This document shows positions 866 through 62,336 of a DNA stretch of 64,000 nucleotides, in pieces. Position 1 is the stretch's first letter, and each line of letters opens with the position of its first letter. The stretch is taken from positions 768,167-832,166 of the forward strand of contig CAVUPP010000020.1 of NCBI GenBank assembly GCA_963743245.1, given 5' to 3'. This DNA is from Vicinamibacteria bacterium (GTDB lineage: Bacteria > Acidobacteriota > Vicinamibacteria > Vicinamibacterales > JAENWD01). The notes under the pieces were generated by a model. The model searched no databases. It saw only the letters and a list, made by a program, of their open reading frames with translations, and was not told the DNA's origin. The position numbers and the translations under genes were made by a program.

Positions 866-928
866 CAACTCCCAACTTCCAAAGCCCAACGCCCAAAGCC
901 GAAAGCCCAACGCGCAGCCTGGAGCCTG
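866..928. repeat. Heptamer tandem array, AAAGCCC family
   Basis: Reads in 7-nt register as CAACTCC CAACTTC CAAAGCC CAACGCC CAAAGCC GAAAGCC CAACGCG CAGCCTG GAGCCTG. It fills the spacer between the kinase stop codon and the galE start. Confidence 0.85.
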
Positions 929-934
929 ACTCAT

Positions 935-1915
935 ATGTCCATCCTCGTTACCGGTGGCGCCGGCTACATCGGCAGCCACACCGCCAAGGTGCTCGCGTCG
1001 AGCGGGCACACCCCGGTCGTGCTCGACAATTTCACGTACGGGCACGACTGGGCCGTGAAGTGGGGACCGCTCGAGCGGGGCGATCTCGGCGACGTCGACT
1101 TCCTCAAAGGCGTCTTCACGCGGCATTCCATTGACGCCGTCATTCATTTCGCCGCAAACGCGTACGTCGGCGAGTCGATGACCCACCCGCGGAAGTACTT
1201 CCGGAACAATACCGTCAACACCCTGAACCTGCTCGACACGATGATCGATCGGGGCGTGACCTCGTTCGTCTTCTCGTCCACGTGCGCGACGTACGGCGTG
1301 CCGAGCCGCGTGCCGATCGACGAGACGCATCTGCAGACGCCCGTGAACCCGTACGGTGAGTCCAAGCTGATGGTCGAGAAGATCCTCCGCTGGTATGGGG
1401 AGGCGTATGGACTGCGATCGGTTGCGCTGCGGTACTTCAACGCGGCCGGAGCGGATCCGGACGGTGAGATCGGTGAAGACCACGATCCCGAGACGCACCT
1501 GATTCCGCTCGTGATCGATGCCGCCCGTGGCACGCGCCCACCAGTCAGTGTGTTTGGCACCGACTATCCGACGCCGGATGGCACGGCCATCCGCGACTAC
1601 ATTCACGTGATGGACCTGGCGTCCGCGCACGTGGGGGCGCTCGACTATCTCCGACAAGGTGGCGCGACGACCGCCATCAACCTCGGCACCGGAACCGGAC
1701 GGTCCGTGCGCGAAGTCGTTCAGGCCGTGGAAGCCGTCAGTGGCAGGGCCGTGCCGACGGTGTTCTCACCGCGCCGCGCCGGCGATCCGCCCGCGCTCGT
1801 CGCCAATCCGCAGAAGGCGAAGGAGACGCTCGGCTGGTCCGCTCGTTATACCGACCTCGCGACGATCATCGAGCACGCGTGGAAGTGGCACACCAGGAAT
1901 GACGGGAAGCATTGA
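935..1915 (+). CDS. galE: UDP-glucose 4-epimerase
   Basis: Starts MSILVTGGAGYIGSH (Rossmann GxxGxxG) and contains the YGESK catalytic motif. The ATG at 935 is chosen over the ORF-track start at 737, which would run through the repeat array. Confidence 0.9.
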   Translation: MSILVTGGAGYIGSHTAKVLASSGHTPVVLDNFTYGHDWAVKWGPLERGDLGDVDFLKGVFTRHSIDAVIHFAANAYVGESMTHPRKYFRNNTVNTLNLLDTMIDRGVTSFVFSSTCATYGVPSRVPIDETHLQTPVNPYGESKLMVEKILRWYGEAYGLRSVALRYFNAAGADPDGEIGEDHDPETHLIPLVIDAARGTRPPVSVFGTDYPTPDGTAIRDYIHVMDLASAHVGALDYLRQGGATTAINLGTGTGRSVREVVQAVEAVSGRAVPTVFSPRRAGDPPALVANPQKAKETLGWSARYTDLATIIEHAWKWHTRNDGKH

Positions 1916-1920
1916 CGATT

Positions 1921-2100
1921 GCAGATTGACGAATGCCGAATGGCATTCCCACTGAAGAGCGTACTTTGCGAAACTCGTCAATCGCACTCGGCATTGCATT
2001 GATCAGTCTCGACGTGATTCCCGAACGGCGCTTCGTGGGCGATTAGTGCGTGACGAAACGACTGCGCATTCCTCATTCGTCAATCGTCATTCGTCTGTCG
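1921..2100. repeat. Convergent-gene spacer with inverted heptamer arrays (TCATTCG family)
   Basis: Left arm is CAGATTG ACGAATG CCGAATG. Right arm is TCATTCG TCAATCG TCATTCG TCTGTCG (2073-2100). There is a perfect 12-bp inverted repeat, GATTGACGAATG (1924-1935) with CATTCGTCAATC (2074-2085). Confidence 0.8.
1931..1948 (+). terminator. Small hairpin just after the galE stop codon
   Basis: GAATGCC-GAAT-GGCATTC gives a 7-bp stem with a 4-nt loop, 16 nt after the stop. No T-tract follows. Confidence 0.3.
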
Positions 2101-2485
2101 CACCACTTCGTGTCGGCCGCTGCGCTGTGACCACGTAGGACCGGAACGTTCGGGCACGTCAAGCGCGTTGAAGAGTCCGAGCGGCACCGATTGCCGAAGC
2201 AGCGCCTGACGCTGCTGCTCGAGCTGCTGTACTTCGTCTTCGAAGTCCGCGTGATGGCGCTCGTAGACCACCATCTCGCTCCAGGTACTCGACCACCAGG
2301 TACCGCGAGGGCTGCGCCAGATCTTTGAGGAACGAACTGCCGAGGAACGAGCGGCTGCGGCGGCTCAACGCTGTCCATGGGCCGTCGGCGCCATAGAGCC
2401 GCTCGAATTCGTCGTTTTTCCCGGGCAGCACGTCGAACTGCCAGACCACCGCAATCACGCTCGACCTCCATCTGGGGCGCGCCAA
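2080..2485 (-). pseudogene. ABM-like (antibiotic biosynthesis monooxygenase fold) small protein with an apparent 1-nt insertion
   Basis: ORFs 2159-2485 and 2080-2274 join as ...RYLVVEY|WSEMVVYERHHADFEDE if the extra C at about 2284 (TAC C TGG) is skipped. The N-terminal part reads VIAVVWQFDVLPGKNDEFERLYG. Confidence 0.45.
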
Positions 2486-2520
2486 CTGTACCGTCTGCGC
2501 GCCGATGATTCAACCGTGGC

Positions 2521-4464: not shown

Positions 4465-4470
4465 GTTCGA

Positions 4471-7195: not shown

Positions 7196-7225
7196 CAAAG
7201 CCCAAAGCCCAAAGCCTAACGCCTA
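7196..7225. repeat. Heptamer tandem array, AAAGCCC family
   Basis: Reads CAAAGCC CAAAGCC CAAAGCC TAACGCC TAC. It overlaps the esterase stop codon (the complement of CTA at 7223-7225). Confidence 0.85.
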
Positions 7226-8329
7226 CTTGAAGATGAGTGGCAGGAACTCCGCCAGATATTTTCGCCAGACCGGCCACTCGTGACCACCCTCGGATAACAC
7301 CCACGTGTGTTTGATCTGCTGATCGGCCAACCAGGCGTTGAACTTCTCGTTGCGATCCAGCAGGAAGTCCTTCTTGCCGATGCCCAGCCAGAGCAGCCCG
7401 AGCTTCTTGGCGGCGTCCGCCTTGAGGTTCGGGAATGCCTTCTCGAGATCTCCCTCCGGCGTTGCGGAACTGAATCCGCCAATCCAATGGAACGTGTCGA
7501 GGTGTGAGAGCCCGGTCGTGAGCGACTGGCCGCCGCCCATCGACAGGCCGACAATGGCGCGTTTGTCGGCGGTCTTTGCCGCGCGGTACCTGGACTCGAT
7601 GAACGGAATGATGTCCTCGAGCAGTTCGCGCTCGACACCCTCGTCGTTGTGCTCCATGTCGGCACGGCTTCGCGCGAGCCGCGGCGAGATCACGTGGCCC
7701 CACGGCATGACGATCAACATCGGCTGGATGCGGTGTTGTGCGATGAGGTTGTCCGCGATCACGTGCGCCTGCCCGACGGCCGTCCAGGCCGAGGGACCGT
7801 CGCCGAAACCGTGTTTCAGATAGACCACGGGCAACGGCTTGCTCTGGTCGCTGTAGCCAGGCGGAGTGTAGACGTAGAGCTGCCTGGTCTGGCCGAGCGA
7901 CGTCGACCGGTAAGTGTGCATCACCACGGTGCCGTGCGGCACGTCCTGCACTTCGTGCAGACGCGGCGGCGTACCCGGGACCAGCACCATACTGTTGAGC
8001 GTCAGCCAGACCTTCACGTCCGGATTCCGCGGATCGATAATCGGAGCCCCGTCCACCTCGTACATGTAGCTGTAGATCTCTGGCTCGAGCGGGCCGATCG
8101 TGACGCTCCAGACGCCCTGGTCGTTCTTCGTGAGATCGGCCGGAGGCTGGCCCTCGATACTCGTTACCCGGACAGCTTTGGCGTTGGGTGCCCACAAGCG
8201 GAACGTCACCGTGCGATCGGCGGCGACTTCGGGGGTGAGGAACTGCGGGGGCTGCTGAGCTGCCGCCGGCGCGACGAGCAGGAACACTCCGACAAAAAGA
8301 CGAGGGAACAGACCGATCCGCTTCATCAA
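7223..8329 (-). CDS. Secreted esterase-family alpha/beta hydrolase with an N-terminal Ig-like/CBM48-like domain
   Basis: Has a signal peptide, and the esterase D-like core includes GLSMGGGQS. Confidence 0.75.
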
Positions 8330-8375: not shown

Positions 8376-8457
8376 TGTCGGATTCGTGTTCGTGTTCGTG
8401 TTCGTGTTCAGATTCGCGTCGGATTCGCGCTCGGATTCGTCTTCGAGTTCGGGCTCG
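8376..8457. repeat. Hexamer tandem array, GTGTTC/GGATTC family
   Basis: Reads GGATTC GTGTTC x4 AGATTC ...GGATTC...GGATTC GTCTTC GAGTTC GGGCTC. It sits in the divergent esterase/MFS spacer. Confidence 0.85.
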
Positions 8458-8505
8458 TGGTCCTGATAGTAATCTTTAGGCCGATGTTGGCCCGCCTGGC
8501 GCCGG

Positions 8506-8534
8506 CACGAAACGAACACCAACACGAATACGAC
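8506..8534. repeat. Hexamer array in inverted orientation (GAACAC family)
   Basis: CACGAAACGAACACCAACACGAATACGAC is an imperfect reverse complement, about 24 nt long, of 8380-8411. Confidence 0.7.
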
Positions 8535-8565
8535 CGCGACCCAATCGAGGCTCCCCGTCCGCCCG

Positions 8566-9865: not shown

Positions 9866-11938
9866 ATGCCGCCCCTAGCGACTGCTGGTAGTCAGCCCTT
9901 CATGTTCGAAGCCGTCGTCCTGATCGTGGCTGCCGCTGTCATTGCGTACCTCTCGTACCGCGTCGGCCTCGTGCCGATCGTCGGCTTTCTCCTGGCCGGC
10001 GCCGTCATCGGCCCGCACGCGGCGGGTCTCGTCAGGGATCCCGAGCTCGTGAACCAGGCGGCAGAGATCGGCGTCATGCTGCTGCTCTTCACGATCGGGA
10101 TCGAGTTCAGCCTCGACAAGCTCGCAAGCCTCAAGACGCTGATTTTCGGGGGTGGCGGGCTGCAGGTTGCACTGACGAGCCTGGTGACGATGGGTCTTCT
10201 GTTGTTTGGAGGCGTGCCGTGGCGGGCAGGGCTCTTCACCGGATTCCTGGTCGCGCTCTCGTCCACGGCCATCGTGCTGAAGTTACTCGCCGACCGCGGT
10301 GAAAGCGACACGACGTGGGGACAGGTCTCGCTCGGCCTGCTGATCTTTCAGGATCTCGCGGTCGTCGTGATGGTCCTGCTCGTGCCGATGTTGGGCGGCC
10401 TGCTCGGCTCGGCTACCGACATCGCCGTCGCGCTCGCCAAGGCGCTCGGGATCATCGCCGTGGTGTTGACCGTGGCCCGACGTGTGATGCCGCCATTGCT
10501 GGAACGCGTGGCTCGCACCTGTTCGCCAGAGTTGTTCCTTCTAGCCGTCGTCGCCATTTGCTTCGGCACCGCCTGGCTGACGAGTCTGGCGGGTGTGAGT
10601 CTGTCGCTGGGCGCCTTCCTGGCCGGGCTGGTCGTCAGCGAGAGCCGCTTCAGCCAGCACGCCTTCGGCGAGATCATGCCGCTGCAGATCCTCTTCAGTG
10701 CGATGTTCTTCGTCTCGGTCGGGATGCTGCTCGACGTGCCATTCGTGCTGGCTCATCTGCCTCTGGTCCTGCTCGCGGTCGTCGTTGTGCTGCTCGTCAA
10801 GGTGCTGATGACGACGGGAGCTGCGCTGGCGCTCGGATTCCCGCTGGCGGTCGCCGCTGCGAGCGGGTTCGTGCTGGCGCAGATCGGCGAGTTCTCGTTC
10901 GTACTGGCTCGCGCCGGCGAAAGCGCCGGCCTGTATCCTGCCGGGCGTGCGGATGTCGGCGGCCAGACGTTCATCGCCGCGTCGGTGCTGCTGATGGTCA
11001 TCAGCCCTCAGCTCACGACAATGGGATCGTCGGTTTCACGCCGTCTGGACCGGCGGCGCGTGGCACGTGAAGCCGCGCAAGTGATGGAGGCCGACACCGG
11101 TGAGCCGGTTGCGGTCGCTCTGTCGGATCACGTGATCGTGGCCGGCTACGGTGTGGCTGCCCGGCATCTGGTTCGCGTGCTCCGGAGCTCGGGTATTCCC
11201 TTTGTCATTACGACGCTCAGTCCCGGCGGTGCGCGGGAAGCCGAGGAGGAGCAGCTCCCCGTGCTTCGGGGCGATGCCGGACGGCAGCTCACGCTGGCCC
11301 GCGCCGGGATCGAGCGTGCTCGAGTCGTGGTGATCGCGGACGACGATCCGGCGACGACCTATCGCGTGTCGGCGGTGGCGCGCACGCTCGCGCCGGAGGC
11401 GCGTATTCTCACGCGCACGCGGTATATGTCCGAGATTGCGTCGTTGAAAGAAGCTGGATCCGACCACGTGATCTCCGAGGAGCTCGAGAGCATCGTCGGC
11501 CTGTTTTCGGAAGTGCTGCGGACCTACGAGGTGGATGCCGCCGACATCGAAACACACGAAGAAGCGATCCGCGGCGGCGGATATGCGGCGCTGCTCGCGC
11601 CACTCGAGGCGCCCAAAGGAGCGTCGGGTGGACGAACCGGGCACCTTCTCGACACAACGACACCTGTCACGCTGGCGACGACGTCGACGTCCTGTAGCCA
11701 CCTCGATCAGGTGCATCCCGTGACGCCGAGCTCCGCTGGTTGCGAGGAGTGCCTGCGGATTGGCAGCAGCTGGGTGCACCTGCGCATCTGCATGATCTGC
11801 GGACACGTGGGCTGTTGCGACAGCTCACCGCATCGCCACGCCACGGCGCACTTCCACGCCGCCGGCCATCCGATCATGCGATCGGGTGAACCGGCGGAGA
11901 CGTGGGGCTGGTGCTACGTCGATCAGGTCGAGCTGTAG
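9866..11938 (+). CDS. CPA2 (Kef-type) cation:proton antiporter with a TrkA-N domain and a C-terminal UBP-type zinc finger
   Basis: The membrane domain is followed by a Rossmann segment (VIVAGYGVAARHL). The tail reads CEECLRIGSSWVHLRICMICGHVGCCDSSPHRHATAHF, which is zf-UBP-like. Confidence 0.8.
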   Translation: MPPLATAGSQPFMFEAVVLIVAAAVIAYLSYRVGLVPIVGFLLAGAVIGPHAAGLVRDPELVNQAAEIGVMLLLFTIGIEFSLDKLASLKTLIFGGGGLQVALTSLVTMGLLLFGGVPWRAGLFTGFLVALSSTAIVLKLLADRGESDTTWGQVSLGLLIFQDLAVVVMVLLVPMLGGLLGSATDIAVALAKALGIIAVVLTVARRVMPPLLERVARTCSPELFLLAVVAICFGTAWLTSLAGVSLSLGAFLAGLVVSESRFSQHAFGEIMPLQILFSAMFFVSVGMLLDVPFVLAHLPLVLLAVVVVLLVKVLMTTGAALALGFPLAVAAASGFVLAQIGEFSFVLARAGESAGLYPAGRADVGGQTFIAASVLLMVISPQLTTMGSSVSRRLDRRRVAREAAQVMEADTGEPVAVALSDHVIVAGYGVAARHLVRVLRSSGIPFVITTLSPGGAREAEEEQLPVLRGDAGRQLTLARAGIERARVVVIADDDPATTYRVSAVARTLAPEARILTRTRYMSEIASLKEAGSDHVISEELESIVGLFSEVLRTYEVDAADIETHEEAIRGGGYAALLAPLEAPKGASGGRTGHLLDTTTPVTLATTSTSCSHLDQVHPVTPSSAGCEECLRIGSSWVHLRICMICGHVGCCDSSPHRHATAHFHAAGHPIMRSGEPAETWGWCYVDQVEL

Positions 11939-12713: not shown

Positions 12714-12776
12714 CCTGAACTGAACCCCGGAACCCTGGAACCCCGGAACTCCCGGAACCCCTGAACTCCCGGAACC
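12714..12776. repeat. Tandem array, GGAACCC family (8-9 nt period)
   Basis: Reads CTGAACTGAACCCCGGAACCCTGGAACCCCGGAACTCCCGGAACCCCTGAACTCCCGGAACC. It abuts the MBL gene's stop codon and the DUF1080 ribosome-binding site. Confidence 0.85.
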
Positions 12777-14188
12777 TATTCGTCGTCCTTACACATTGGC
12801 AATCCAGCATTTTGCCACGCGGCCATGCCGCCCGTGATGTTGATGACACCGCGTGCGCCGGCGCGGGCCAGCACACTCGACGCCACCGTCGACCGGTATC
12901 CGCTTCCGCAGACGACCGCGACCATCTGCTGCTCCTGCGCCACGACCGCCGCCGTCGACGCGAGGTCGCCTGGCAGCACGTGTGTCGCCCCGCAGATGTG
13001 CCCCTCGCTCCACTCCTCGGTGGAGCGTACGTCGATGACGCTCGGCGCCGGCGTCTGTGCGAGCCGCGCGTGGGCGTCTCGGGCCGTCATTTGCTGCGTG
13101 GTTGCGAGCTCGTAGCCCGCGTCTACCCACGCGGGAATGCCGCCATCGAGCACGCCGCGCACATCATCCAGGCCGACGCGCACGAGCCCGCGCACGGCTT
13201 CTCGTGCGTGTACGGGCTCGGCCGCCACCAGGACGATTGGCGTGTCGTACGGCACGACCCATCCTGCCCACATGGACAGACTGCCGTTCCAGCCGATGCC
13301 GAAGGATCCAGGCACGTGTCCGCCGCCAAACGAGACCTGATCACGCAGATCGATGACCACCGCGCCCGCCGCGACGAGGTCGTGCACTTCCAGCGGCGAC
13401 AGGAGATCGGCGCCCGGCAGGTGATCGAGCAGCGGCGGTCCCGCGGAGTTGAGAACCTTCATGCGCCGGTAGTACGGCGGAAACGGGGGCAGATCCTGCA
13501 ACAGGCGATCGACGAACGAGTCTTGTGAGAGCGGCCTCCCAAGAAGGGGATTGGCGAGCCGTTCGAATCCCAGCGTGGACATGGGCCGGGCGCTCATGCC
13601 CGCGCCGCACATCGACCCCGCGCCATGACCTGGATGGATCTCGAGCCCGTCCGGCAACGAGTCGAGTCGCCGCACGCTCTCGAACACCCGCCCTGCCAGT
13701 TGCCGCTTCACATCGTCGCCAATCAGGTCCGGGCGGCCGAAGGATCCGACGAACAGGAAGTCGCCCGAGAGCAGGACCTGCGGAACCTCCCGGGATCGCG
13801 CAGTGTCGAATAGCAGGAACGACAGGTGCTCTGGTGTATGACCGGGCGTGTGGAGGGCCTGGATTCGCACGCGACCGATCGTCACGACGGCGCCGTCGGT
13901 CATCGAGACGTGGGGAATCTGCGACGTGTACAGCTCGCCCTGATCGTAGGCCGAGAGATGGAGCTCTGCGCCGGTGCGATACGCCAGCTCGCGCGCGCCC
14001 GACGCGAAATCGGCATGGATGTGCGTCTCGAGAACGTGCGTGATCCGGAGGCGGCGGGCGGCTGCGAACGCGAGGTAAACGTCTACGTCCCGCCGCGGAT
14101 CGACCACGGCCGCAACGCTGGCGCCTTCACACGCGACGATGTAGGAGTACTGCGCCAGCCCTTTGTCGTCGAAGCGCTCGAACAGCAC
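12776..14188 (-). CDS. MBL-fold metallo-hydrolase fused to two rhodanese domains (persulfide dioxygenase-sulfurtransferase-like)
   Basis: Has the ETHIHADF metal motif. The C-terminal half carries two rhodanese-like segments with the active-site context VCGSGYRS. Confidence 0.75.
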   Translation of the reverse strand: MLFERFDDKGLAQYSYIVACEGASVAAVVDPRRDVDVYLAFAAARRLRITHVLETHIHADFASGARELAYRTGAELHLSAYDQGELYTSQIPHVSMTDGAVVTIGRVRIQALHTPGHTPEHLSFLLFDTARSREVPQVLLSGDFLFVGSFGRPDLIGDDVKRQLAGRVFESVRRLDSLPDGLEIHPGHGAGSMCGAGMSARPMSTLGFERLANPLLGRPLSQDSFVDRLLQDLPPFPPYYRRMKVLNSAGPPLLDHLPGADLLSPLEVHDLVAAGAVVIDLRDQVSFGGGHVPGSFGIGWNGSLSMWAGWVVPYDTPIVLVAAEPVHAREAVRGLVRVGLDDVRGVLDGGIPAWVDAGYELATTQQMTARDAHARLAQTPAPSVIDVRSTEEWSEGHICGATHVLPGDLASTAAVVAQEQQMVAVVCGSGYRSTVASSVLARAGARGVINITGGMAAWQNAGLPMCKDDE

Positions 14189-14828: not shown

Positions 14829-17800
14829 ATGCTTTGTCTCATCCGTAGATTCCTGTTCCTCCTCATCGTCATGTCATGTCCGTGCGTCGTGGGCGCGCAG
14901 ACGGCCACGGCCACGCTGTTCATCGACGCGCACGACAGCGCCGGCGCCCCGCTCGGAGGCGTCAGTGTGCGCCTCGCCAATCAGTCATCGGGCACGGCGC
15001 GAGTCGTTCTCACCACGCACGAGGGGACGGCTGTCGTTCCGCTGCTTCCCGCCGGTCTCTACACGGCCACGGCGACACTGACCGGGTTCAAACAGGCGGT
15101 CGTGACTGATTTGCGGCTCGACGCGGCGGGAAAGGGGACGCTCGCGCTCGTGCTGGTGCCGGGTGCCTACACGGAATCCGTGGTGGTGAGTGCGGACGTG
15201 TCGCGCCTGCAGCCGGGCGGTGGCGCGATCGGTGAAGTGTATGACGGCCGCACGCTCGTCATGATGCCGATGGACACGCGCGACTTTCTGCAGTTCACGT
15301 ATCAGTCGCCAGGAGCGGCGCCGCCGGCGCCGGGCTCGCGCCTCTCGAGCGAAGGCAACGCTGGCGTCAATGTATCGGGCGCGCGTGAGGCCGCGAACAA
15401 TTTCCTCCTCGATGGCACCGATAACAACGACCTGTTCCTCAATCGCCTCGTCGCGACGCCGAGTCTCGACGCGATCCAGGAATTCACGCTGGTCCAGAAC
15501 ACGTACGACGCCGAATACGGACGCAACGCAGGCGCCCAGGTCAACGTCGTCCTGAAATCGGGCAGCAGCGACACGCACGGATCGCTCTTCGAGTACTTCC
15601 GTCACGAGGCGCTCGACGCACGCGGCGTCTTCGATCCGCCCGACGTCGACAAGCCGCGCTTTCGGCGGAACCAGTTCGGCGGCACGCTCGGCGGTCCATT
15701 ACCCGGTATCCGCGGCCTCTACTTCTCGAGTGTCGAGGGTCTGACGACGAGCGCGGCCGAAACACGCGTCACGACGGTGCCCTCTGCCGCGGAACGGGCG
15801 GGCGACTTTTCGGGCAGCGGCAAGACGCTCATCGATCCATTCACTGGCCAGCCGTTTCCCGGCAACCGCATCCCCATGGATCGTCTGGATCCAACCGGAA
15901 GCGAAGTCGCAGCGCTCTACCCTGATCCCAATCGCACCGGCGGCCAGAATTTCGCATCGTCTCCGCTGGGATCGCGCGATGGTGTGCGCGTGGCGGTCAA
16001 GACGGACCATCGTCTCTGGCACGACACGCCGCTGTCGCTGCGCTACGCGTACACGTCGGACGATCGGCAGGTTCCGTTCCCGAACGGCGCGCGCAATCTA
16101 CCGGGATTTGGGATTGGCGTCACCGACATCGGGCAGAACGCGGCAGCCGGCCTGTCACAGGTGCTGTCGCCGCACGTGTTGAACGAGCTGCACGTCGGGT
16201 GGAATCGGCTGCATCGCGAAAACGTGCCGGCAGCGAGCGGCACCGACCAGTTCCTGGCCCTGGGCATCACCGGCCCCGCGCTGCCATTGGTCGATCAAGG
16301 CTATCCCGCGTTCTCGGTGGCGGGTTACGAGCCGCTCGGCGACGATCCCAACCTGCCGGTTGTTCGCCGAACGTCCACGTGGCACGTGTCCGACAGCGTG
16401 ACGATCGAGCGCGGCCGTCATCTCTGGAAGCTGGGTGGGGAAGTCCGCCGCTACGCGTCCGACGGCTTCAACCACGTCTACGCGCGCGGACAGATTGGAT
16501 TCACGGGCGCGTTCACGGGCGATGCGCTGGGCGACCTGCTGCTTGGAGTGCCGACTTTCTCGATTCTTGCCGCGAACGACAATCCGCAGGCGCTTCGCGC
16601 GACGTCGTACAACCTGTTCGTGCAGCACGACTGGCGGCCCACACCACGCCTGACCGTCAACGCGGGACTCCGCTACGACCTCAACCTGCCGCCTGTGGAT
16701 GCGTACGATCGTATGCAGGTGTTCGACCTGGCCACCGAGACGCTGCGACCGGTGGGAGAGGATGGTGTGCCGCGATCCGGCGTCGCGACCGATTGGAACA
16801 ACCTCGCGCCGCGCGTCGCCGTCAGCTGGCAGGTGCCAGGCCGCGCCGCACTGACACTCAGGGGCGGCGTCGGCGTCTATTACGACAGCGGCACGTTGAT
16901 TGAAAACTCGGCGCTCTACTTCAATCCGCCCTACTTCGACCTTCGACTGTTCGCGCCGTTCACCGAGCCGCTGCGTCTGTCGAATCCGTTCCCCATCGAT
17001 CAGGGCTCCGTGCCGCCCGCATCCGTGAACACCCTCGAGCCGTCGTTCACGACCGCTTCGACGACCCAGGGGAGCTTCGGTGTCGAAGGTCGGTTGCGCG
17101 GCGTCGATCTGACGGCGCGGTACGTGGGGTCGAGCGGACATCATCTCGTGCGCCGGCGTAACCTGAATCAGCCGCCGCCGGGTCCCGGGCCCATTGATGA
17201 CAGGCGGTCCATTGCGGGCTACGGAGACATCCTGCTCGTCGAGCCCGCGGCCTCCTCGAACTACAACGCCCTGCAGCTGCAGGCCGAGCGGCAGCGGGCG
17301 ACGGGCCTGTCGTTCCGCGCTGCTTACACCTGGGGCAAATCGATCGACGACACCTCAGCGTTCCTGCCGAGCAGCGGCAACGACAATACGCCGCAGGACG
17401 CGCGTCGTCCCGAAGCCGAACGCGGTCTGTCGGACTTCGATGTGCGGCATCGCGTGTCGGTGGCAGCCGTCTGGCCCATTCCTCCCGGGCGCTGGGCCTG
17501 GACCGAGCACTGGCAGGTCAGTGCGATCTTTGCGGCGCAATCGGGACGTCCCTTCACGCCTCGCGTCTCGGTGGACAACAGCAACACGGGGAACAATGGC
17601 GGGTCCTTCGGCTACGACCGGCCGAACGAAGTGGACCCCGCAACGGCGCCGTCCGGAGCGGTGACCTACGAAGGGCGCGCGTTCGTGATGGCGCCGGCGT
17701 ATACCTTCGGCGATGCCGGCCGGAACATCTTGATTGGCCCCGGATTGGCGAGTCTCGACCTCGCTATCGGGCGGACGTTCCATCTGGCCGGCGATCGGCG

Positions 17801-17948: not shown

Positions 17949-18003
17949 AGTCGAAGGGTCGAAGAGTCAGCAAGGGTCGAAGAGTCAAGGGTCGCAAGGT
18001 CAG
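17949..18003. repeat. Tandem array, GTCGAAG family (about 8 nt period)
   Basis: AGTCGAAGGGTCGAAGAGTCAGCAAGGGTCGAAGAGTCAAGGGTCGCAAGGTCAG fills the whole convergent spacer from one stop codon to the other. Confidence 0.85.
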
Positions 18004-21300: not shown

Positions 21301-21772
21301 CCTGCTGAATCAGCGGTTCCGCTGGGTCTTCGGGACGCTCCAGGCCGCGTGGAAGCAGCGCGACACGCTGTTCCGCCCGCGCTTTGGCGCACTTGGCCTC
21401 GCCGCGATGCCCAACCTGATCGTGTTCCAGGTCCTGTTCCCGCTGGTCTCACCGATGATGGATCTGCAGATGCTCGCGTCGCTCGGAGCGGCGGCCCTCC
21501 AGCGCCACCAGCATCCCGCGGAATTCTCGGCCGACATCATGAACCGCACGCTGTTCTTCTACGCGCTGTTCGTGGTGGTCGATCTGGCGGCAGGTGCGCT
21601 CGCGTTCGTGCTCGAACGCAAGGAAGACTGGAAACTGCTGCTCTGGCTGCCGCTGCAGCGATTCACCTACCGCCAACTGATGTACTACGTTGTCGTGAAG
21701 TCGGCCGTCGCGGCGCTGCGGGGAACGCGCGTGGGGTGGGGCAAGCTCGAACGAAAAGCCACGGTTACGTAA
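18377..21772 (+). CDS. Multidomain exopolysaccharide synthase: TM segment, GH18-like domain, CE4 polysaccharide deacetylase and GT2 processive glycosyltransferase (PNAG/PgaC-PgaB-like)
   Basis: The GH18-like region contains GVNLDFE and LILMAYDEH. The NodB motifs are ALTFDDGPDP and HEVGNHTFTH. The GT2 motifs are VAVIVPAHNES, VVDDGSTDDT, ALDADT and QRFRWVFG. Confidence 0.85.
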   Translation: MPSSNRQIFYDPEQRRWRWVRRLGLVALGALSLSFLVAMAMVLVNPALPAIGLPPNERLPQPHHVVLPRPERPARAAERRYLETRRALAEANATARRSASRPVPAPAHRTELTGFFVNWDDTSFTSLKENIRSLDRLMPEWLHLTDATGTIDLDQPARQQDVMAFVARAKPGLRIVPLVNNFDAATVQWQSGALATMLASPEARHRAIDQLRSYVQARHFAGVNLDFESVPSRSRSHLVQFTRELHAVFHPLGLEVSQSVPLDDPAFDYPQLSRACDYLILMAYDEHTGDGDAGSIASQAWFSQTLERRVEEVTPDRIVVALGSYGYDWIDGRHGTEVSFQEAVRTAAESEGHIGLDEDSLNPTYDYFDDGDRLHHVWFLNGVTAFNEVRDASDIDLRGYALWRLGSEDPSVWTVFDHRSHLDEPIARQLSTLRYGYDIDYEGQGEVLRVIATPREGRRDVQYDSTSGLITDERLLDYPSPYVIERRGTGTPKAMALTFDDGPDPRWTPQILDVLRTQQAPATFFVIGVNADQDPALLERMMREGHEVGNHTFTHPDISTITRQQLRLEINATERLLESVIGRRSLLFRPPYAEDIEPETPDQVNPLLYTSSTGYYTIGLGIDPNDWTNPGVDRIVQDTIDGADAGRGHVVLLHDGGGDRTQTVAALPGIIDGLRRRGYSLVTVSSLVGLSREAVMPPVPPQEWWSLWLTDAAFLTLGSASAVLRTLFLVGIALAIVRLAVIGTLAVWQRARAHRHRPPGAPPATVAVIVPAHNESKVIVRTVEALLASDGPGVDILVVDDGSTDDTADMAEEAFRTVPRVRVLRKPNGGKAAALNYGLRLTDAPIVVALDADTIFEPSTVTRLVQAFRSPRVGAVAGNAKVGNRINLLTRWQALEYITSQNLERRAFDSLNGITVVPGAVGAWRRELVVAAGGLNDDTLAEDADLTMRILRAGYEIVYEDEAIAWTEAPDTVQGLLNQRFRWVFGTLQAAWKQRDTLFRPRFGALGLAAMPNLIVFQVLFPLVSPMMDLQMLASLGAAALQRHQHPAEFSADIMNRTLFFYALFVVVDLAAGALAFVLERKEDWKLLLWLPLQRFTYRQLMYYVVVKSAVAALRGTRVGWGKLERKATVT

Positions 21773-33345: not shown

Positions 33346-33359
33346 GACTGTCGTGAGGT

Positions 33360-35576: not shown

Positions 35577-35578
35577 AT

Positions 35579-40848: not shown

Positions 40849-40850
40849 GG

Positions 40851-40937: not shown

Positions 40938-40948
40938 CTCGCTGGGGC

Positions 40949-41371: not shown

Positions 41372-41380
41372 GCGCACGCC

Positions 41381-41428
41381 GAAGGCCCAACGCCTAGAGC
41401 CCAAAGCCAAGGCCAAAGCCAAGCGCCT
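41381..41428. repeat. Heptamer array, AAAGCCC orientation (inverted relative to 40851-40937)
   Basis: Reads GAAGGCC CAACGCC TAGAGCC CAAAGCC AAGGCCA AAGCCAA GCGCCTC. Confidence 0.85.
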
Positions 41429-41452
41429 CACTTAGGGCCGCGACTCTCTTTC

Positions 41453-48445: not shown

Positions 48446-48506
48446 GATCGATACGACTCGACTCGACTGATTCGATTCGACTGATTCGATTCGACCGACC
48501 CGACTG
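48446..48506. repeat. Tandem array, CGATTCGACT family (14-nt unit, equal to 2x7)
   Basis: Reads CGATACG ACTCGAC TCGACTG ATTCGAT TCGACTG ATTCGAT TCGACCG ACCCGAC TG. Confidence 0.8.
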
Positions 48507-48606
48507 AAAGACCAAACTTTTTCGTTTCGGACGCGACTCTGTCCGGCGTGTGTACGGCGGATTCGGCGTCCATGGTCGAAGACTGCCCGAGACAAGGAGT
48601 CAGGGA

Positions 48607-49959
48607 ATGACTGGTGCAATCACGTCACGGCGGGTGACATGGCTGACAGTGGCACTCGTAGCCTGCCTGCTGCCGCTTCTCGTGAGCAATATGGTGAGCG
48701 GCCAGGCCTCGTCGCGCGATCAGCGTCGCCGCACAAGGTTCACTCCGACGGCGCAAGTGGATCCCGAGGCGCCGTCGTCAATCGCGCCGGCTGCCGCGCC
48801 GACGGCCGCACCTGCGGGATTCTCGAATCTGACGAACGGTTTCGATCCTCAGGGGCCCGATTTCAACACGTTGAACGAAGACACGGCGGTGGCGCTCCGA
48901 TCGTTCAACGACAATCGCTTCACGTTCGAGGAGACCGAGACAGTGACTGACGGACTGGGACCGACATACAACGCCCAGAGTTGCCGCGAGTGTCACCAGA
49001 ACATCGTGACGGGAGGGGCGAGCCAGGTGACGGTGTTGCGCGCGGGTCACCTGACCGGCGGACAGTTTTTCGAGTCACAGGGCGGATCGCTCATTCAGTC
49101 GCGGGCGACGCATCCCGACGTGAGTGAGAATCTCACGGCCGCCGACAGCATCCGCGCCTTCCGGATCTCGCCCAACACGCTCGGCGACGGGTTCGTCGAG
49201 GCCATCTCCAACACAACGCTCATGAACATTCGTGCGGCGCAGCCCTCAACCATGCGAGGTCTTGCCGTCGTGGTGCCGGTACTCGAGGCCAACGGCACCG
49301 GCCGGATCGGTCGCTTCGGCTGGAAGGGACAGCACGCGAGCCTCGAGTCGTTTGCTGCGGACGCCTATCTGAATGAAATGGGCATCACGAGCCCGCTGCT
49401 ACCCGACGAGAACACCGCCAACGGACGGGACGTGGCGCCGTACGACACGAAGCCCGACCCCGAAGACGACGGCGACGATGTCAAGGCGTTCGCGAACTTC
49501 ATGCGCGCGACCATGGTGCCGCCGCGGGGAGCGATCACGGCGACCGTGACGTCTGGCGAGCAGGTGTTCAACCGCATCGGCTGCGCCACGTGCCACGTCG
49601 GCTCGATGATCACGGCGCCGGCGAATACATCGATCAACGGCGGCGCGATGATCGTTCCCGCCGCGCTCGGGAACAAGGTGATCCATCCATACAGCGACTT
49701 CCTGCTGCACGATGTCGGCACGGGAGACGGCATTCCAATCCAGCCGACCGCGGAGTTCGCCAACACGGCGAATCGGATGCGGACCGCGCCGCTCTGGGGA
49801 TTGCGAACGAGAAACCGGATGATGCACGACGGGACGGCGCTCACGCCTGAGGAAGCCATCCTCCGTCATGCGGGGCAGGCGGCCGGTGTGACTACGCGGT
49901 ACCGGGCGCTTTCGTCTGCCGAGAAGGCGCAGGTGGCGGCGTTCCTGAATTCGCTGTGA
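48607..49959 (+). CDS. Di-haem oxidoreductase / putative peroxidase (DUF1111-like)
   Basis: Has an AAGGAG ribosome-binding site 7 nt before the ATG at 48607 and a signal peptide. It carries two CxxCH motifs (CRECH and CATCH). Confidence 0.8.
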   Translation: MTGAITSRRVTWLTVALVACLLPLLVSNMVSGQASSRDQRRRTRFTPTAQVDPEAPSSIAPAAAPTAAPAGFSNLTNGFDPQGPDFNTLNEDTAVALRSFNDNRFTFEETETVTDGLGPTYNAQSCRECHQNIVTGGASQVTVLRAGHLTGGQFFESQGGSLIQSRATHPDVSENLTAADSIRAFRISPNTLGDGFVEAISNTTLMNIRAAQPSTMRGLAVVVPVLEANGTGRIGRFGWKGQHASLESFAADAYLNEMGITSPLLPDENTANGRDVAPYDTKPDPEDDGDDVKAFANFMRATMVPPRGAITATVTSGEQVFNRIGCATCHVGSMITAPANTSINGGAMIVPAALGNKVIHPYSDFLLHDVGTGDGIPIQPTAEFANTANRMRTAPLWGLRTRNRMMHDGTALTPEEAILRHAGQAAGVTTRYRALSSAEKAQVAAFLNSL

Positions 49960-49960: not shown

Positions 49961-50059
49961 GGTCTAACTCTGGCAGTCTACGGTCTTCAGTCTGCGGTCC
50001 GCGTGTGGCAGCGGACGGCGTCGTGGCAGCCGAAGACCGTAGACTGAAGACTGCGGACC
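49961..50059. repeat. Inverted heptamer arrays (GTCTGCG family) between convergent genes; candidate bidirectional terminator
   Basis: AGTCTACGGTCTTC (49975-49988) is the perfect complement of GAAGACCGTAGACT (50032-50045). The flanking units are GGTCTAA, AGTCTGC and GGTCCGC on one side, and GAAGACT and GCGGACC on the other. Confidence 0.7.
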
Positions 50060-53277: not shown

Positions 53278-53950
53278 GAAAAGCAGGAACAAACCTCGGC
53301 CGAGCCCGGAACAGGTCTCCGAGCTCACGACCAACCGCCTCTCGATTTATCTGCGCTGCCTCACCGAGCTCGAGGCCACGCACGTGGATACCATCTCGTC
53401 GCAGGGCCTGGCGGAGCGCTTTCACCTGAACGCCGCCCAGATCAGGAAAGACCTGGCATGGTTCGGCGAGTTCGGTGTCCGTGGCGTCGGCTACTACGTC
53501 AAGGATCTCCGTCGCCATCTGCGGACGATCCTCGGTCTCGATCGGCGGCTCCGCGTGGCGATCATGGGCGCGGGGAATCTGGGACTCGCGCTCGCGGACT
53601 ATCCCGGCTTCCGTCAGGAAGGCTTCGAGATCGTCGCGCTGTTCGACACCTTGAACGACAAGGTTGGACAGGTGTCGCGAAGCGGCGTGGCCATCCACGA
53701 CATCCGGCAGTTCAAGCGGATCGTCCGGCACGAACGCGTCGGCATCGCCGTCATCGCCGTCCCGGCCGGTGCCGCCCAGCAGGTGGTGAACCTGGTCGTC
53801 GCCGCCGGAATCAAAGCGATCCTCAACTTCTCTCCCGGCACGCTGTCGGTTCCGGGGGATGTGAAGCTCAAGAGCGTTGACTTGACCGTTTCGCTCGAGA
53901 GCCTGTCGTTCTTCCTCGCGCGCGGTGAAGGCGCTTCACATGAGGCGTAA
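53276..53950 (+). CDS. rex: Redox-sensing transcriptional repressor Rex
   Basis: Contains TTNRLSIYLRCL...ISSQGLAE...NAAQIRKDLAWFGEFGVRGVGY and the Rossmann segment VAIMGAGNLG. Confidence 0.9.
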   Translation: MKSRNKPRPSPEQVSELTTNRLSIYLRCLTELEATHVDTISSQGLAERFHLNAAQIRKDLAWFGEFGVRGVGYYVKDLRRHLRTILGLDRRLRVAIMGAGNLGLALADYPGFRQEGFEIVALFDTLNDKVGQVSRSGVAIHDIRQFKRIVRHERVGIAVIAVPAGAAQQVVNLVVAAGIKAILNFSPGTLSVPGDVKLKSVDLTVSLESLSFFLARGEGASHEA

Positions 53951-54485
53951 AAAAGCCGTCCGACCATCGTCTTCGCGCCGCGTCCCCACGCGATCAGGGG
54001 CTGCGGCACTCACGCACGTCGCTCAGGATGGCTCGGTGCAGATGGTGGACGTGGCGGCGAAAGCGGTGACCGCTCGCGAAGCCATCGCCGCTGGACACGT
54101 CACCGTCAACGCATCAGCGCGCCGGCTCGTCCGGCAGGGGCAGATCAAGAAGGGGAATCCCCTCGAAGTGGCGCGCGTGGCGGGCATCCTGGCGGCCAAG
54201 CGTACCGCCGAGATCATTCCGCTCTGCCATCCACTCCCGCTCAGCCACGTCGCGATCGATATCGCGCCGGTGAAAGATGGTTATCGCATCACCGCGACCG
54301 TGCGCACGACGGCACAGACCGGCGTCGAGATGGAAGCGCTGACGGCCGTGTCAGCCGCGGCCCTGACCGTCTACGACATGCTCAAGGCCGTGGATCGCGA
54401 GATGGTGATCGGTGAGATCTGTTTGCTCGAGAAGCGAGGTGGACGCACCGGAGAGTACGTGCGGGGCCAAAGGCCAAAGGCCTAA
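53925..54485 (+). CDS. moaC: Cyclic pyranopterin monophosphate synthase MoaC
   Basis: Contains MVDV..K..T.R.A and IIPLCHPLPLSHV...TGVEMEALTAVSAAALTVYDM. An alternative start at 53940 is possible. The last codons and the stop codon lie inside a repeat array. Confidence 0.88.
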   Translation: MKALHMRRKKAVRPSSSRRVPTRSGAAALTHVAQDGSVQMVDVAAKAVTAREAIAAGHVTVNASARRLVRQGQIKKGNPLEVARVAGILAAKRTAEIIPLCHPLPLSHVAIDIAPVKDGYRITATVRTTAQTGVEMEALTAVSAAALTVYDMLKAVDREMVIGEICLLEKRGGRTGEYVRGQRPKA

Positions 54486-54506
54486 AGCCCAGACCCAAAG
54501 CCTACG
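54465..54506. repeat. Heptamer array, AAAGCCC family
   Basis: Reads GGCCAAA GGCCAAA GGCCTAA AGCCCAG ACCCAAA GCCTAC. It spans the stop codons of the convergent moaC and CDF genes. Confidence 0.85.
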
Positions 54507-55387
54507 TCTGTGCGGCCCATCCGACCGGCGGTGGCTCGATGTGGATGACCGCATCGGCAATCTGCGGATAGCGCTCGATCAACCGATCCTTGACCACGTG
54601 TGACACCGCGTGGGCATCGTCGAGGCGCATATCGGGCTTGAGCCAGACGTGGAGATCCAGGAACACGTAGTCCGATGACCCGCGTGTTCGGATGTGATGC
54701 GCGCCAAGGACACCTGGCACGCTCAAGACCACCTGCCGCAGGGCGTCCTCGCCGATGACGATGTGATCGGCCAGGATGTACGAGCGTAGACAGTGCGATC
54801 TCGACTCCCGCGCGTCCGATGAATCCGACGACGATGAAGGCGGCGATCGGATCGAGGAGCGGGATGCCGGCGGCCATGCCGGCCAGTGCCGCGATGACCG
54901 TCAGCGACGTGAACACGTCACTCTTGGTATGCGTCGAGTCCGCGACGAGAACCTCGCTCGAGAGCTCGCGTCCCTTTCGCCGCTCGTAGGTCGCGACGAT
55001 CAGGTTTATCGCCAGCGTCGCGATCAGGACACCGAAAGTCAGGCTCGTGATCTGGGGCGGTTGCGGATGGCGTAACCGGTCGACCGCGGTCCGCAGGACT
55101 TCAACCATTACGAGCATCAGGAAGCCCGCAATGAGGCCGGCCGCGAGCGTCTCGAACTTGCGATGCCCGTAGGGATGGTCGCGGTCCGGTGGTTTGCGCG
55201 CGATGCGCACGCCGACCAGACCGACGACATTGGAGAGCGAGTCCGCGAGCGAGTGAAAGCCGTCCGACAGGATGCTGACGGCGCCCGTCACGAAGCCGAG
55301 CACAATCTTCGCCACCGCCACCGCCAGGTTGAGCACCAATACCTGGACGAGGACGACGACAACGGCGTTGTAACGGCGATCGGGCAC
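54502..55387 (-). CDS. Cation diffusion facilitator (CDF) family transporter; apparent 1-nt insertion
   Basis: Contains SILSDGFHSLADSLSN and HPYGHRKFE. The C-terminal domain reads VPGVLGAHHIRTRGSSDYVFLDLHV and lies in ORF 54502-54732. The join is at about 54776-54788. Confidence 0.75.
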
Positions 55388-61413: not shown

Positions 61414-61456
61414 GGGGCGGGGTCGCTCATCCCGTCATCCGGCGGCACCCCGCCCC
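61414..61456 (+). other. Second GC-rich stem-loop (perfect 10-bp stem)
   Basis: GGGGCGGGGT-N23-ACCCCGCCCC. Confidence 0.4.
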
Positions 61457-61474
61457 TGACTCATGCAAGGTTTC

Positions 61475-61503
61475 TTGTCGGGATGGGGCGGTCGGGATAT
61501 AGT
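61475..61503 (+). promoter_or_regulatory. Candidate sigma70 promoter of the methyltransferase gene
   Basis: TTGTCG-N17-TATAGT, about 40 nt upstream of the ATG at 61543, which has a GGAGAGG ribosome-binding site. Confidence 0.45.
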
Positions 61504-61542
61504 CCGAAGGGTTTTGCAGGCCCTCAGCGATCGGAGAGGTGC

Positions 61543-62247
61543 ATGGCACTGTTTCAGCAGGCAGACGGCAGTCGGGACGAGGAAGTCATCGGCGGATCCG
61601 ACGCGGCCAGCCGCGCGTTGTCGGTCATAGCAGTCGAGACCGACTTCGTCGAGGGCGTGTACGAGAAGCTCGCGTCAGTTTATGACTGGTTCTTCGGCCC
61701 GACGTTGCACGCTGGCCGCCTGCAGGCGATGCAGCGCATGGCGATCTCGCCCGGCGACCGAATCCTTGAAGTCGGCGTCGGCACCGGGATCAACCTGTCG
61801 CTGTATCCTCGCGATTGCGAGCTGACCGGCATCGACCTCTCCGACTCGATGCTCGAGAAGGCCTATGAGCGCGTCGCCGAGAAACGGATGCGTAACGTCC
61901 ACCTCCAGCAGATGGACGCCTCCCGCCTCCTGTTTCCCGACGCCTCCTTCGATATTGTCTACGCCCCGTATCTGATCAGTGTGGTCCCCGACCCCGTCCA
62001 GGTCGCCCGTGAAATGGGGCGGGTATGCCGGCCGGGCGGCCGGATCGTCATCCTCAATCACTTCCGTAGCACGAATCCGATCATGTCGTGGGGCGAGCGG
62101 CTGATTTCGCCGTTCACGATCCACATCGGATTCAAGTCAGACCTCGACCTGCCCGCCTTCCTCGCACAAGCCGATCTCCAACCTGTCTCAATCGAGAAGG
62201 TCAACATCCCGCCTATCTGGTCCCTGGTGACGTGTATCAAGGACTGA
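61543..62247 (+). CDS. Class I SAM-dependent methyltransferase (PmtA-like phospholipid N-methyltransferase candidate)
   Basis: Has the SAM motif ILEVGVGTGINL, followed by FDIVYAPYLISVVPDP...RPGGRIVILNHF. The ATG at 61543 has a ribosome-binding site. Confidence 0.7.
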   Translation: MALFQQADGSRDEEVIGGSDAASRALSVIAVETDFVEGVYEKLASVYDWFFGPTLHAGRLQAMQRMAISPGDRILEVGVGTGINLSLYPRDCELTGIDLSDSMLEKAYERVAEKRMRNVHLQQMDASRLLFPDASFDIVYAPYLISVVPDPVQVAREMGRVCRPGGRIVILNHFRSTNPIMSWGERLISPFTIHIGFKSDLDLPAFLAQADLQPVSIEKVNIPPIWSLVTCIKD

Positions 62248-62266
62248 CGAAGGCTGATCAGGTCAA

Positions 62267-62336
62267 GTGGCCAAGGGCCAGGGTAAGGCGTCCCAGCCAG
62301 CGCCCGAAAGCCTAAAGCCCAAAGCCTAGAGGCTCT
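62267..62336. repeat. Heptamer array, AAAGCCC family
   Basis: Reads GTGGCCA AGGGCCA GGGTAAG GCGTCCC AGCCAGC GCCCGAA AGCCTAA AGCCCAA AGCCTAG AGGCTCT. It contains the stop codon of the convergent GT gene. Confidence 0.85.

Follow-up and report, generated by a model that had tools for sequence, protein, structure and literature searches.

Mostly heptameric tandem-repeat arrays at gene ends in a genome region of a Vicinamibacteria bacterium

We analysed a stretch of 64 kb (hereafter the window; contig CAVUPP010000020.1, positions 768,167 to 832,166) from the genome of a Vicinamibacteria bacterium, in which many spacers between genes contain arrays of short, mostly heptameric tandem repeats. These arrays had been listed at 17 loci in an initial annotation made from the sequence alone. 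The G+C content of the window is 65% throughout. A gene map was built with a codon-usage model and checked with Pfam and NCBIfam, and it leaves approximately 5.3 kb (8%) non-coding. The encoded proteins include TonB-type receptors with CarboxypepD_reg domains and a protein matching TIGR03436 (acidobact_VWFA). Because of this match, and because relatives found in public genomes carry the names Acidobacteriota or Terriglobales, we assign the host to the phylum Acidobacteriota. An Rfam search of the window at the gathering threshold found only a tRNA-Leu. ARAGORN also proposed a tRNA-Ser(GCT) at 688-765, which lies within the open reading frame (ORF) 1-858, has no Rfam support at the gathering threshold and is probably a false positive.

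Using Tandem Repeats Finder (TRF) with a score of at least 30, we recovered one or more arrays within each of the 17 intervals. The period was 7 at most loci, as had been claimed, with periods of 5, 6 and 8 also present, and the period-7 rows merged into 11 arrays. For a measure of enrichment, the spacers were shuffled 200 times with their dinucleotides preserved, the comparison proposed along with the initial annotation. The real spacers gave 39 TRF rows, 14 of them with period 7, versus means of 1.9 and 0.2 in the shuffles (maxima 6 and 2, respectively). Arrays of period 5 to 8 with a score of at least 34 were found in 13 of 35 spacers, compared to 0.1 in the shuffles. Furthermore, the density of period-7 rows was approximately 33-fold higher in spacers than in coding sequence, and the rows within genes mostly had periods of 6, 9, 12 or 15. 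The word AAAGCCC, counted in all rotations on both strands, occurred 16.2 times per kb in spacers versus 0.51 times per kb in coding sequence (32-fold), and the recurrence of word families was confirmed, with AAAGCCC-type words at 9 loci. Units further apart in an array were less alike, their mean Hamming distance climbing with lag from 2.4 to 4.5 at 23155 and from 1.75 (lag 1) to 4.0 (lag 5) at 866, which is the pattern expected if neighbouring units duplicate and then mutate. The spacers had been described as systematically occupied; this was too strong, since 17 of the 29 spacers of at least 45 nt hold an array. Tandem arrays were indeed found in each of the 17 intervals, but five of these, which had been read as single arrays, have non-repetitive centres (1921-2100, 8376-8534, 33245-33345, 49961-50059 and 62267-62336), and all of the five except 62267-62336 are inverted array pairs or hairpins.

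The arrays are unevenly distributed with respect to gene orientation. Among spacers of at least 45 nt, occupancy was 7/7 for convergent, 9/15 for tandem and 1/7 for divergent gene pairs (Fisher p = 0.011 for convergent plus tandem versus divergent, and 0.005 for convergent versus divergent). The arrays had been said to occur between convergent, tandem and divergent genes alike. All three types do occur, but there is a strong bias towards gene 3′ ends and the divergent type is represented by one locus (8376-8534). Eight of the nine arrays in tandem spacers start 0-9 nt past the stop codon, close to the 0-10 nt claimed, whereas the array at 48446-48506 lies 191 nt away; the distance from the array end to the next start codon in these spacers is 6-95 nt. 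The arrays had also been thought absent from coding regions. However, they supply the terminal codons of ORFs at 54465-54506 and 62312-62336, and they overlap stop codons at 7196 and 12714. Over the 40 nt past the stop codon, the sense strand was G+T-rich at 13 of 16 informative array-bearing ends (p 0.02) and at 7 of 15 array-free ends. The orientation of G-C skew alone was not significant (10/18).

Two forms of array can be distinguished, unidirectional arrays (at 866, 7196, 12714, 17949, 23155, 28883, 35579, 48446, 54465 and 62267, and in the first part of 33245) and inverted pairs. The unidirectional array at 866-928 passes from CAACTCC to CAAAGCC in about nine units (TRF rows at 866-910) and lies in the tandem spacer between the genes at 1-858 (+) and 935-1915 (+), 7 nt past the stop codon and 6 nt ahead of the ATG; exceptionally, its C/A-rich strand is on the mRNA. 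At 7196-7225, (CAAAGCC)3 plus a variant unit (100% match in TRF) abuts or overlaps the stop codon of gene 7223-8326 (-), with GGCTTTG on the mRNA and the next start codon 29 nt further. The octamer/17-mer array GGAACCCC at 12714-12776 begins at the stop codon of gene 12776-14188 (-), 13 nt ahead of the next ATG, and has its G-rich strand on the mRNA. A repeat of period ~8, GTCGAAGG (17949-18003), fills the 51-nt convergent spacer between a TonB-type receptor gene (+) and a helix-turn-helix gene (-). The 13 heptamers at 23155-23245, in a tandem (- -) spacer 4 nt past the stop codon of gene 23250-25331, drift from CCACGGT through CACGGCA and CAAAGCC to GATGGCC. The 11 heptamers at 28883-28959 (four CAACTCC followed by seven CAAAGCC, with GGGCTTT on the mRNA) begin 5 nt past the stop codon of a dehydrogenase gene (28965-30314, -). 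They adjoin a short hairpin, GAATCTGGGCC-loop-GGCCCAGATTC (28856-28883), located between the array and a TonB-type receptor gene.

The remaining unidirectional arrays include compound forms and arrays that extend into genes. At 35579-35647, (CGGTCTG)4.4 followed by (ACGAAC)5.7 fills the convergent spacer between the ferritin and acyl-CoA-synthetase genes, and in either half the sense strand of the closer gene is G+T-rich. The array at 48446-48506 consists of CGACT / TCGATTCGACTGAT words with period 5/14/19, in a tandem (+ +) spacer 43 nt ahead of the likely start of gene 48550-49959. The GGCCAAA/CCCAAAG array at 54465-54506 spans the convergent ends of the genes for MoaC (53925-54485, +) and a cation efflux protein (54482-55387, -), and both genes take their final 7-8 codons and their stop codons from it. 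The convergent spacer at 62267-62336 holds G-rich words and then (AAAGCCY)3, and gene 62312-63499 (-) ends within this array, its final 8 codons and stop codon being 62312-62336. At 33245-33345, between the stop codon of gene 31062-33244 (+) and the tRNA-Leu gene (33360-33447, -), a GGGCTTT array (33250-33274) is followed by a hairpin of GTTGAAGGGTC / GACCCCTTCGAC words.

That hairpin, in the second half of 33245-33345, is one of five inverted array pairs without an ORF, a pairing that had not been remarked on in the initial annotation. The others are as follows. At 30354-30430, (GGTCTGC)n / (GCAGACC)n forms a near-perfect hairpin; the stop codon at 30431 precedes it by 0-4 nt, and the dehydrogenase ATG follows after 39 nt. 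At 49961-50059, GGTCTAC/GGTCTTC words pair with GAAGACC/GTAGACT words (arms of 15 nt perfect and 35 nt at 74%), and the 102-nt convergent spacer is filled by the hairpin, which comes within 1-2 nt of either stop codon. The sole divergent-spacer locus, 8376-8540, consists of the inverted hexamers (TTCGTG)n / (CACGAA)n with arms at 8377-8405 and 8512-8540. Finally, the GACGAAT/ATTCGTC pair at 1914-2095 lies in a convergent spacer, where it begins at the stop codon of gene 935-1915, and has 29-nt arms (1914-1942 and 2067-2095, 83% complementary) around a non-repetitive centre of 124 nt. The predicted RNA folds were strong at 30354-30430 (-57 kcal/mol, z -7.8), 8376-8540 (-80.6 kcal/mol, z -6.1) and 49961-50059 (-55 kcal/mol, z about -5.9), and reached z -2.7 at 33245-33345. 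The whole-region fold of 1921-2100 was not significant (z -1.0 to -1.4), only its 29-nt arms being paired. Unidirectional arrays were weakly folded, with z-scores of -3 to -3.9 only at 12714 (minus strand, -3.05) and 17949, on one strand each.

One possibility is that the arrays are the terminators of this lineage, with the hairpins acting without a U-tract and the C-rich arrays loading Rho (as rut sites) onto read-through or antisense transcripts. Canonical terminator-like sites were found at chance level (10 versus 9.8 expected). This agrees with the earlier statement that the arrays are not one simple terminator type, and it implies that another mechanism must end transcripts, which is a point in favour of this possibility. 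The array in every convergent spacer of at least 45 nt, the GAUUUGCUUUUCC stretch downstream of the 30354 hairpin on the mRNA strand, and the C-rich, G-poor and unstructured strand of unidirectional arrays (at 866, -9 kcal/mol over 69 nt) point the same way. However, a U-rich tail is present at the 30354 hairpin only, where it starts approximately 8 nt past the stem, and one hairpin lies in a divergent spacer. Moreover, arrays also occur within closely spaced, apparently co-transcribed co-directional gene pairs, 6-13 nt ahead of the next start codon, and close relatives cope with 0-1 units or with a convergent spacer of 8 nt. We therefore regard a general terminator role as unlikely. The class of intrinsic (Rho-independent) terminators was rejected because of the chance-level sites and the single U-rich tail.

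The arrays had further been said to fit a G-quadruplex pattern. The canonical motif, four G3+ tracts with loops of at most 7 nt, was found in 1 of the 17 arrays (12714-12776), and allowing loops of up to 12 nt raised this to 5 of 17. GGGCTTT is the main family, the sense strand past the stop codon tends to be G+T-rich, and the arrays follow the same location rules as the GGGNATC repeats of Xanthomonas and Nostoc (PMC4692102), for which a regulatory role as quadruplexes in 3′ untranslated regions has been proposed. Against such a role stand the rarity of the motif, the absence of G tracts from the TTCGTG, CGACT and CATTCGT families, the lack of a significant G-C skew, and a copy number that varies from 0 to ~22 units among close relatives and does not favour four. 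A quadruplex function thus seems improbable to us, and for the same reasons (the motif count and the unit numbers) we did not place the arrays in the Xanthomonas/Nostoc G-quadruplex heptamer class.

For a comparison of the same spacers in relatives, we used the 90%-identity protein cluster of the dehydrogenase. A search of metagenome contigs with the dehydrogenase gave, among the matches listed, homologues of at most 72% identity, and an exact-protein look-up gave no record for the product of gene 23250-25331 or for the dehydrogenase (P0129, 100% identical). With the 23250-25331 protein, a search of genome contigs yielded a single close relative, whose 3.7-kb contig includes no spacers; the remaining 79 loci from the genome-contig search, at ~50% amino acid identity, were used as background only. 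By amino acid identity to the dehydrogenase of the window, the relatives are L166 (96.7%; a short contig), L164 (95.1%; syntenic over 20 kb at 93% nucleotide identity), L081 and L082 (91.8%; from two samples), L165 (83.5%; syntenic) and L083 (77%; obtained in a separate look-up).

Arrays were present in the same spacers in five independent relative assemblies (83-97% amino acid identity), which derive from different samples and assemblers. The arrays are thus not artefacts, and an origin from assembly or sequencing errors, which is further contradicted by typical reads being longer than the arrays, can be practically dismissed. In L164, arrays occur at 6/6 orthologous spacers and share word families with those of the window, but none is identical to its counterpart. 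The turnover is most evident in the spacer past the dehydrogenase stop codon, where the number of units is 0 in L081 and L082, 1 in L166, 11 in the window, ~11 in L165 and ~22 in L164, while the next gene beyond the spacer is conserved. The L164 array, with about twice the unit number of the window, includes a CACGGCG block. In the alignments, the adjoining 28856-28883 hairpin is kept in L164 and L166 and, in a variant form, in L081 and L165, with or without the array. Likewise, the ferritin spacer holds 78 nt of array in the window and (CTACGAA)n in L164, and measures 8 nt without array in L083. At 23155, the L164 array lacks 21 nt (three units) and differs by other indels, and the L165 orthologue of this unidirectional array is an inverted GGGCTTT/AAAGCCC pair, so the two forms interconvert. 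The 30354 hairpin was found in four of five lineages (window, L166, L164 and L165; -44 to -60 kcal/mol) with arm units that differ in number and variant, and was lost in L081, where the upstream context is different. Unit numbers and words turn over far more quickly than the genes around them, and the evidence for turnover in place is unusually clear.

The 33245 locus is strongly remodelled in L164. The orthologue of window 33245-33360 (L164 6786-7068) also has an extra insertion of ~190 nt beside tRNA-Leu, which opens with an incomplete second copy of the 3′ end of the tRNA (GGTGCCAAAGGGGGGAATCGA...) and looks like an integration scar.

The window, L164, L165 and two further relatives described below (L167 and L168) had 1.7-6.9 period-7 arrays per 10 kb. 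The density was 0.48 in L083, 0.30 in metagenome loci (0.78 Mb) and 0.11 in Terriglobales genomes (1.5 Mb). The density is therefore 6-60 times higher in the clade than in the comparison loci, and abundant arrays are clade-specific.

Separately, a few distantly related Terriglobales metagenome-assembled genomes (L006, L015, L057 and L067) have heptamer words of their own, including inverted pairs, and most of the 79 loci have none. Examples are CTGGTAG/ACCAGCT, TGGCACT and GGTAACT in L006 (2212-2390, 13292-13329 and 20279-20330) and CGTTGGC/GCCAACG in L015 (21329-21462). At the loci compared, L083 is without heptamer arrays; one of its spacers (15342-15522) holds a 26-nt tandem repeat of 6.8 copies, and (GCGTGTCTCT)3.3 is found at 9881-9914, upstream of the dehydrogenase gene.

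When the spacers were compared with each other by blastn, matches were confined to the arrays (15-31 nt) and none reached the flanks, which argues against a whole element of the kind seen in miniature inverted-repeat transposable elements (MITE) or repetitive extragenic palindromic (REP) sequences. Like these, the arrays are intergenic, form hairpins in some cases and often lie at gene 3′ ends; unlike these, they have no whole-element copy with conserved ends and change length in place by whole units. Both classes were rejected. An identical 25-mer, TCGGTCTGCGGTCTACAGTCTGCGG, with variant units in the same order, was found at 30359-30383 and 35578-35602, 5 kb apart. The L164 orthologue of the latter locus differs from it, and the shared 25-mer hints at a recent short-patch exchange between arrays.

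One pair of arrays encloses a gene, an arrangement that had also gone unremarked. The ORF at 40949-41371 (+) encodes a protein of 140 amino acids that matches PF05635, "23S rRNA intervening sequence protein" (E 3.7e-29), and the four-helix bundle family TIGR02436 (E 1e-27). A GGGCTTT/GGGCGTT array (40851-40937, +), which starts 2 nt past the stop codon of a DUF4126-type gene (40261-40848), ends 11 nt before its ATG, and a CCCAAAG/CCAAGG array (41381-41428, +) starts 9 nt past its stop codon. In the minimum-energy fold of the full 592 nt (40849-41440), the two arrays pair as the 5′ and 3′ arms of a stem with the ORF in the loop; the arms (46 nt, 76% complementary) form a duplex of -70 kcal/mol versus -45 +/- 5 kcal/mol for shuffled arms. 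The orthologous locus was found in L167 (195-675) and L168 (2450-3020), where the ORF has 73% and 62% amino acid identity, respectively, and lies between a GGGCTTT and an AAAGCCC array. The ORF and its DUF4126 neighbour are co-directional in the window and convergent in L167 (267-1389) and L168 (2604-3617), while the arms keep their positions. This suggests either that the stretch between the inverted arms was inverted or that the ORF entered a pre-existing stem independently. A homologue of 58% amino acid identity lies in an unrelated context (L169-L177; L169 1750-2260) between the inverted arrays GGCTTCA/GGCTACG and CGAAGCC/TGTAGCC (duplex -75 kcal/mol). Overall, the duplexes of the bracketing arms reached -63 to -75 kcal/mol versus -29 to -45 kcal/mol after shuffling, a control that was made for the window, L167 and L168. 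A tblastn search with 120 PF05635 proteins found no further copy in ~2.37 Mb of compared loci. Another array of inverted, compound type was found at L168 1-246, directly past the stop codon of a 714-amino-acid gene; it reads (CGGCTYA)n (GGCGTTG)n ... (GTTCCGC)n (GCCGTAA)n. L168 and L082 derive from one sample.

This layout recalls the intervening sequences (IVS) of 23S rRNA. In Coxiella, the IVS carries an S23p ORF within a 28-bp terminal stem that is cut by RNase III (PMC4990558). The element at 40851-41428, and it only, shares with the Coxiella and Leptospira IVS an ORF of the same family in the loop of a long stem formed by terminal inverted repeats, and a size of ~0.4-0.6 kb (PMC4990558). 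Unlike the rRNA elements, which sit in helices 9, 25 or 45, it lies between protein-coding genes (a DUF4126-type and a VWA-domain gene, and tRNA being the only Rfam hit in the window) and has arms built of heptamer arrays. The arrays in general could then be the cis-elements of an IVS-like selfish family, in which the full form is an inverted-array stem with the PF05635 ORF in its loop, by analogy cut by RNase III, and the other hairpins and arrays are decayed or non-autonomous derivatives. The plan identical to that of the Coxiella element, the recurrence of the layout with different words at the unrelated L169-L177 locus, the strength of the arm duplexes and the presence of ORF-less inverted pairs with centres of 106-124 nt (1914-2095 and 8377-8540) would all fit. 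However, the window has 17 array loci but a single PF05635 ORF, ~2.3 Mb of other loci have no such ORF, array similarity stops at the flanks with no whole-element copies, the arrays grow and shrink in place, and PF05635 proteins have no known mobility function. On balance we think it unlikely that the arrays as a whole originate in this way.

A broader version would make the heptamer arrays and the PF05635 (Avd-like) genes one system, with IVS-like stems in both mRNA spacers and rRNA, ORF-less and solo arrays as derivatives, and a protein that acts on repeat RNA or DNA. Here the pentameric four-helix-bundle protein might take part in processing, copying or spreading of the units. To our knowledge, cyanobacteria, Xanthomonas, Bacteroidetes and the acidobacterial clade alike carry free-standing PF05635 genes. 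We give this idea little credence; if true, it would offer the first mechanistic handle on the spread of heptamers in all four groups. The association of the ORF with an array-built stem is a side observation worth following up. A 23S-IVS-type ORF that recurs in such stems outside rRNA connects, in a concrete and testable way, two sorts of bacterial "junk" that are both poorly understood.

Knowledge of dispersed heptamer arrays dates back to 1990 for cyanobacteria and to 2007-2015 for other bacteria, and we know of no accepted origin or function for them. The short tandemly repeated repetitive elements (STRR) of heterocystous cyanobacteria comprise STRR1-3 with the words CCCCAGT, TTGGTCA and CAACAGT. 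According to the title of a 1997 paper by Vioque, an STRR is reportedly inserted in a structured RNA gene. The comparison with STRR sequences made in the initial annotation holds in that head-to-tail units of ~7 nt, in at least three copies, are dispersed over many unlinked loci of an Acidobacteriota genome. The window arrays share with the cyanobacterial sequences the 7-bp units, several word families per genome, the intergenic location and the capacity to form hairpins. They are not STRR proper, since their host belongs to the Acidobacteriota and their words (AAAGCCC, AACTCCC, GCAGACC etc.) differ from those of STRR1-3, and it is for the acidobacterial arrays that the 3′-end bias and the turnover among close relatives are documented directly. 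In cyanobacteria, such 7-bp repeats can form hairpins between genes, as between hupS and hupL, where stabilisation of the transcript was suggested (PMC2670836).

The closest known case is provided by Xanthomonas and Nostoc with their heptamers GGGAATC / GGGGA(C/T)T (Rehm et al. 2015; PMC4692102). These have no known function; they lie between the same genes across related species while their length and sequence vary extensively, and polymerase slippage is the hypothesis cited for the prevalence of heptamers (PMC4692102). The window arrays resemble them in being dispersed, strongly non-coding, rare between divergent ORFs, in inverted copies at some loci, close to stop codons (mostly 0-50 bp in Xanthomonas and Nostoc, at times overlapping) and orthologous yet variable, and Xanthomonas shares the G+C content of 65%. 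They differ in their words, in the many families per genome, in their degenerate, drifting arrays and in the host phylum. The claim that such arrays were undescribed for a high-GC, Acidobacteria-like genome thus holds in part: a high-GC case is known in Xanthomonas (PMC4692102), but we found no description for Acidobacteria in the searchable literature, although tables of earlier surveys may list acidobacterial genomes. As far as that literature shows, the arrays extend a known kind of repeat to a new phylum.

A third comparison concerns the TAACTGA direct repeats of Beggiatoaceae, cyanobacteria and Bacteroidetes, in which a single word occurs in 2-6 copies a few nucleotides upstream of start codons, with a single inverted set reported (MacGregor 2015; PMC4679880). 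Both are abundant intergenic heptamer direct repeats, and the mechanism by which TAACTGA spreads is not known (PMC4679880). The acidobacterial arrays follow stop codons and use many words. As proposed for the Beggiatoaceae repeats, the arrays might be platforms for a sequence-specific RNA- or DNA-binding protein with one site per 7 nt, and a small vocabulary common to unlinked loci and related genomes would suit such a role. This is very difficult to reconcile with at least nine unrelated words side by side, words that drift within a single array, an unconstrained copy number and a position past stop codons, as opposed to the sites ahead of start codons in PMC4679880; no candidate protein was found either, and we consider binding platforms highly improbable.

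Instead, we favour as reasonably probable that the arrays are clade-specific, hypervariable STRR-like repeats that arise by slippage and exchange between arrays and are tolerated past stop codons, with the inverted pairs serving as hairpins for RNA processing or stability. Replication slippage would duplicate or delete neighbouring units in place, followed by point mutation, and short-patch recombination between loci would swap array sequence and so preserve a small common vocabulary. Some arrays would become inverted pairs through strand-switching or selection for pairing. Arrays in coding sequence or in divergent spacers, which bear promoters, would be purged by selection, so that arrays accumulate between the stop codon and the next signal. 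The unidirectional arrays would have no sequence-specific role, and the absence of arrays, or the presence of one unit only, in close relatives argues that they are dispensable. Transcription of the inverted pairs would yield long hairpins, located between cistrons or at the 3′ ends of mRNAs, whose role would most likely lie in processing or stability, be it as a block to exonucleases, as a site for RNase III or as a terminator lacking a U-tract. The one array stem that encloses the four-helix-bundle (23S-IVS-protein) ORF may do so in the manner of rRNA intervening sequences.

Several points weigh against this explanation. The small vocabulary at unlinked loci is not predicted by pure slippage from random seeds, and we invoke recombination between arrays for it, the evidence being one identical 25-mer together with shared words. 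The 17949 array is almost unchanged between the window and L164, and the 30354 hairpin may have persisted because it has a function. The G+T bias past stop codons hints at orientation-dependent selection or at a mutational bias linked to transcription. It is the small vocabulary, this sense-strand bias and the retained hairpin that a purely neutral model fits least well. In addition, the analysis covers a single 64-kb window of the genome, of limited extent, with a gene map that is firm at stop codons and crude at start codons.

The findings add a clade of uncultured soil Acidobacteriota to the list of array-bearing bacteria. As relatives at 77-97% amino acid identity show turnover of units and words in place, this clade is suited to measuring rates of slippage and exchange in metagenomic populations. 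For genome annotation, it should be considered that arrays can form the terminal codons and stop codons of genes and can cause long false extensions by ORF callers.

The gene complement of the window also differs from that of its relatives. Three window genes appear split by frameshifts, those for a signal-peptide protein (30431-30864), a Trans_reg_C+PD40 protein (31062-33244) and a PAF-AH-like hydrolase (33451-34972). The latter two are single ORFs in L164 or L165, and the split genes are either pseudogenes or the result of sequencing errors. The reverse was also observed, with several genes split in L164 and intact in the window. Finally, a gene encoding a fusion of GH18, polysaccharide deacetylase and GT2 domains (1131 amino acids; 18377-21772) is missing from L164 (18571-18782 compared), with a breakpoint at approximately window position 18390, and is kept in L165 and in the P0121 contig.

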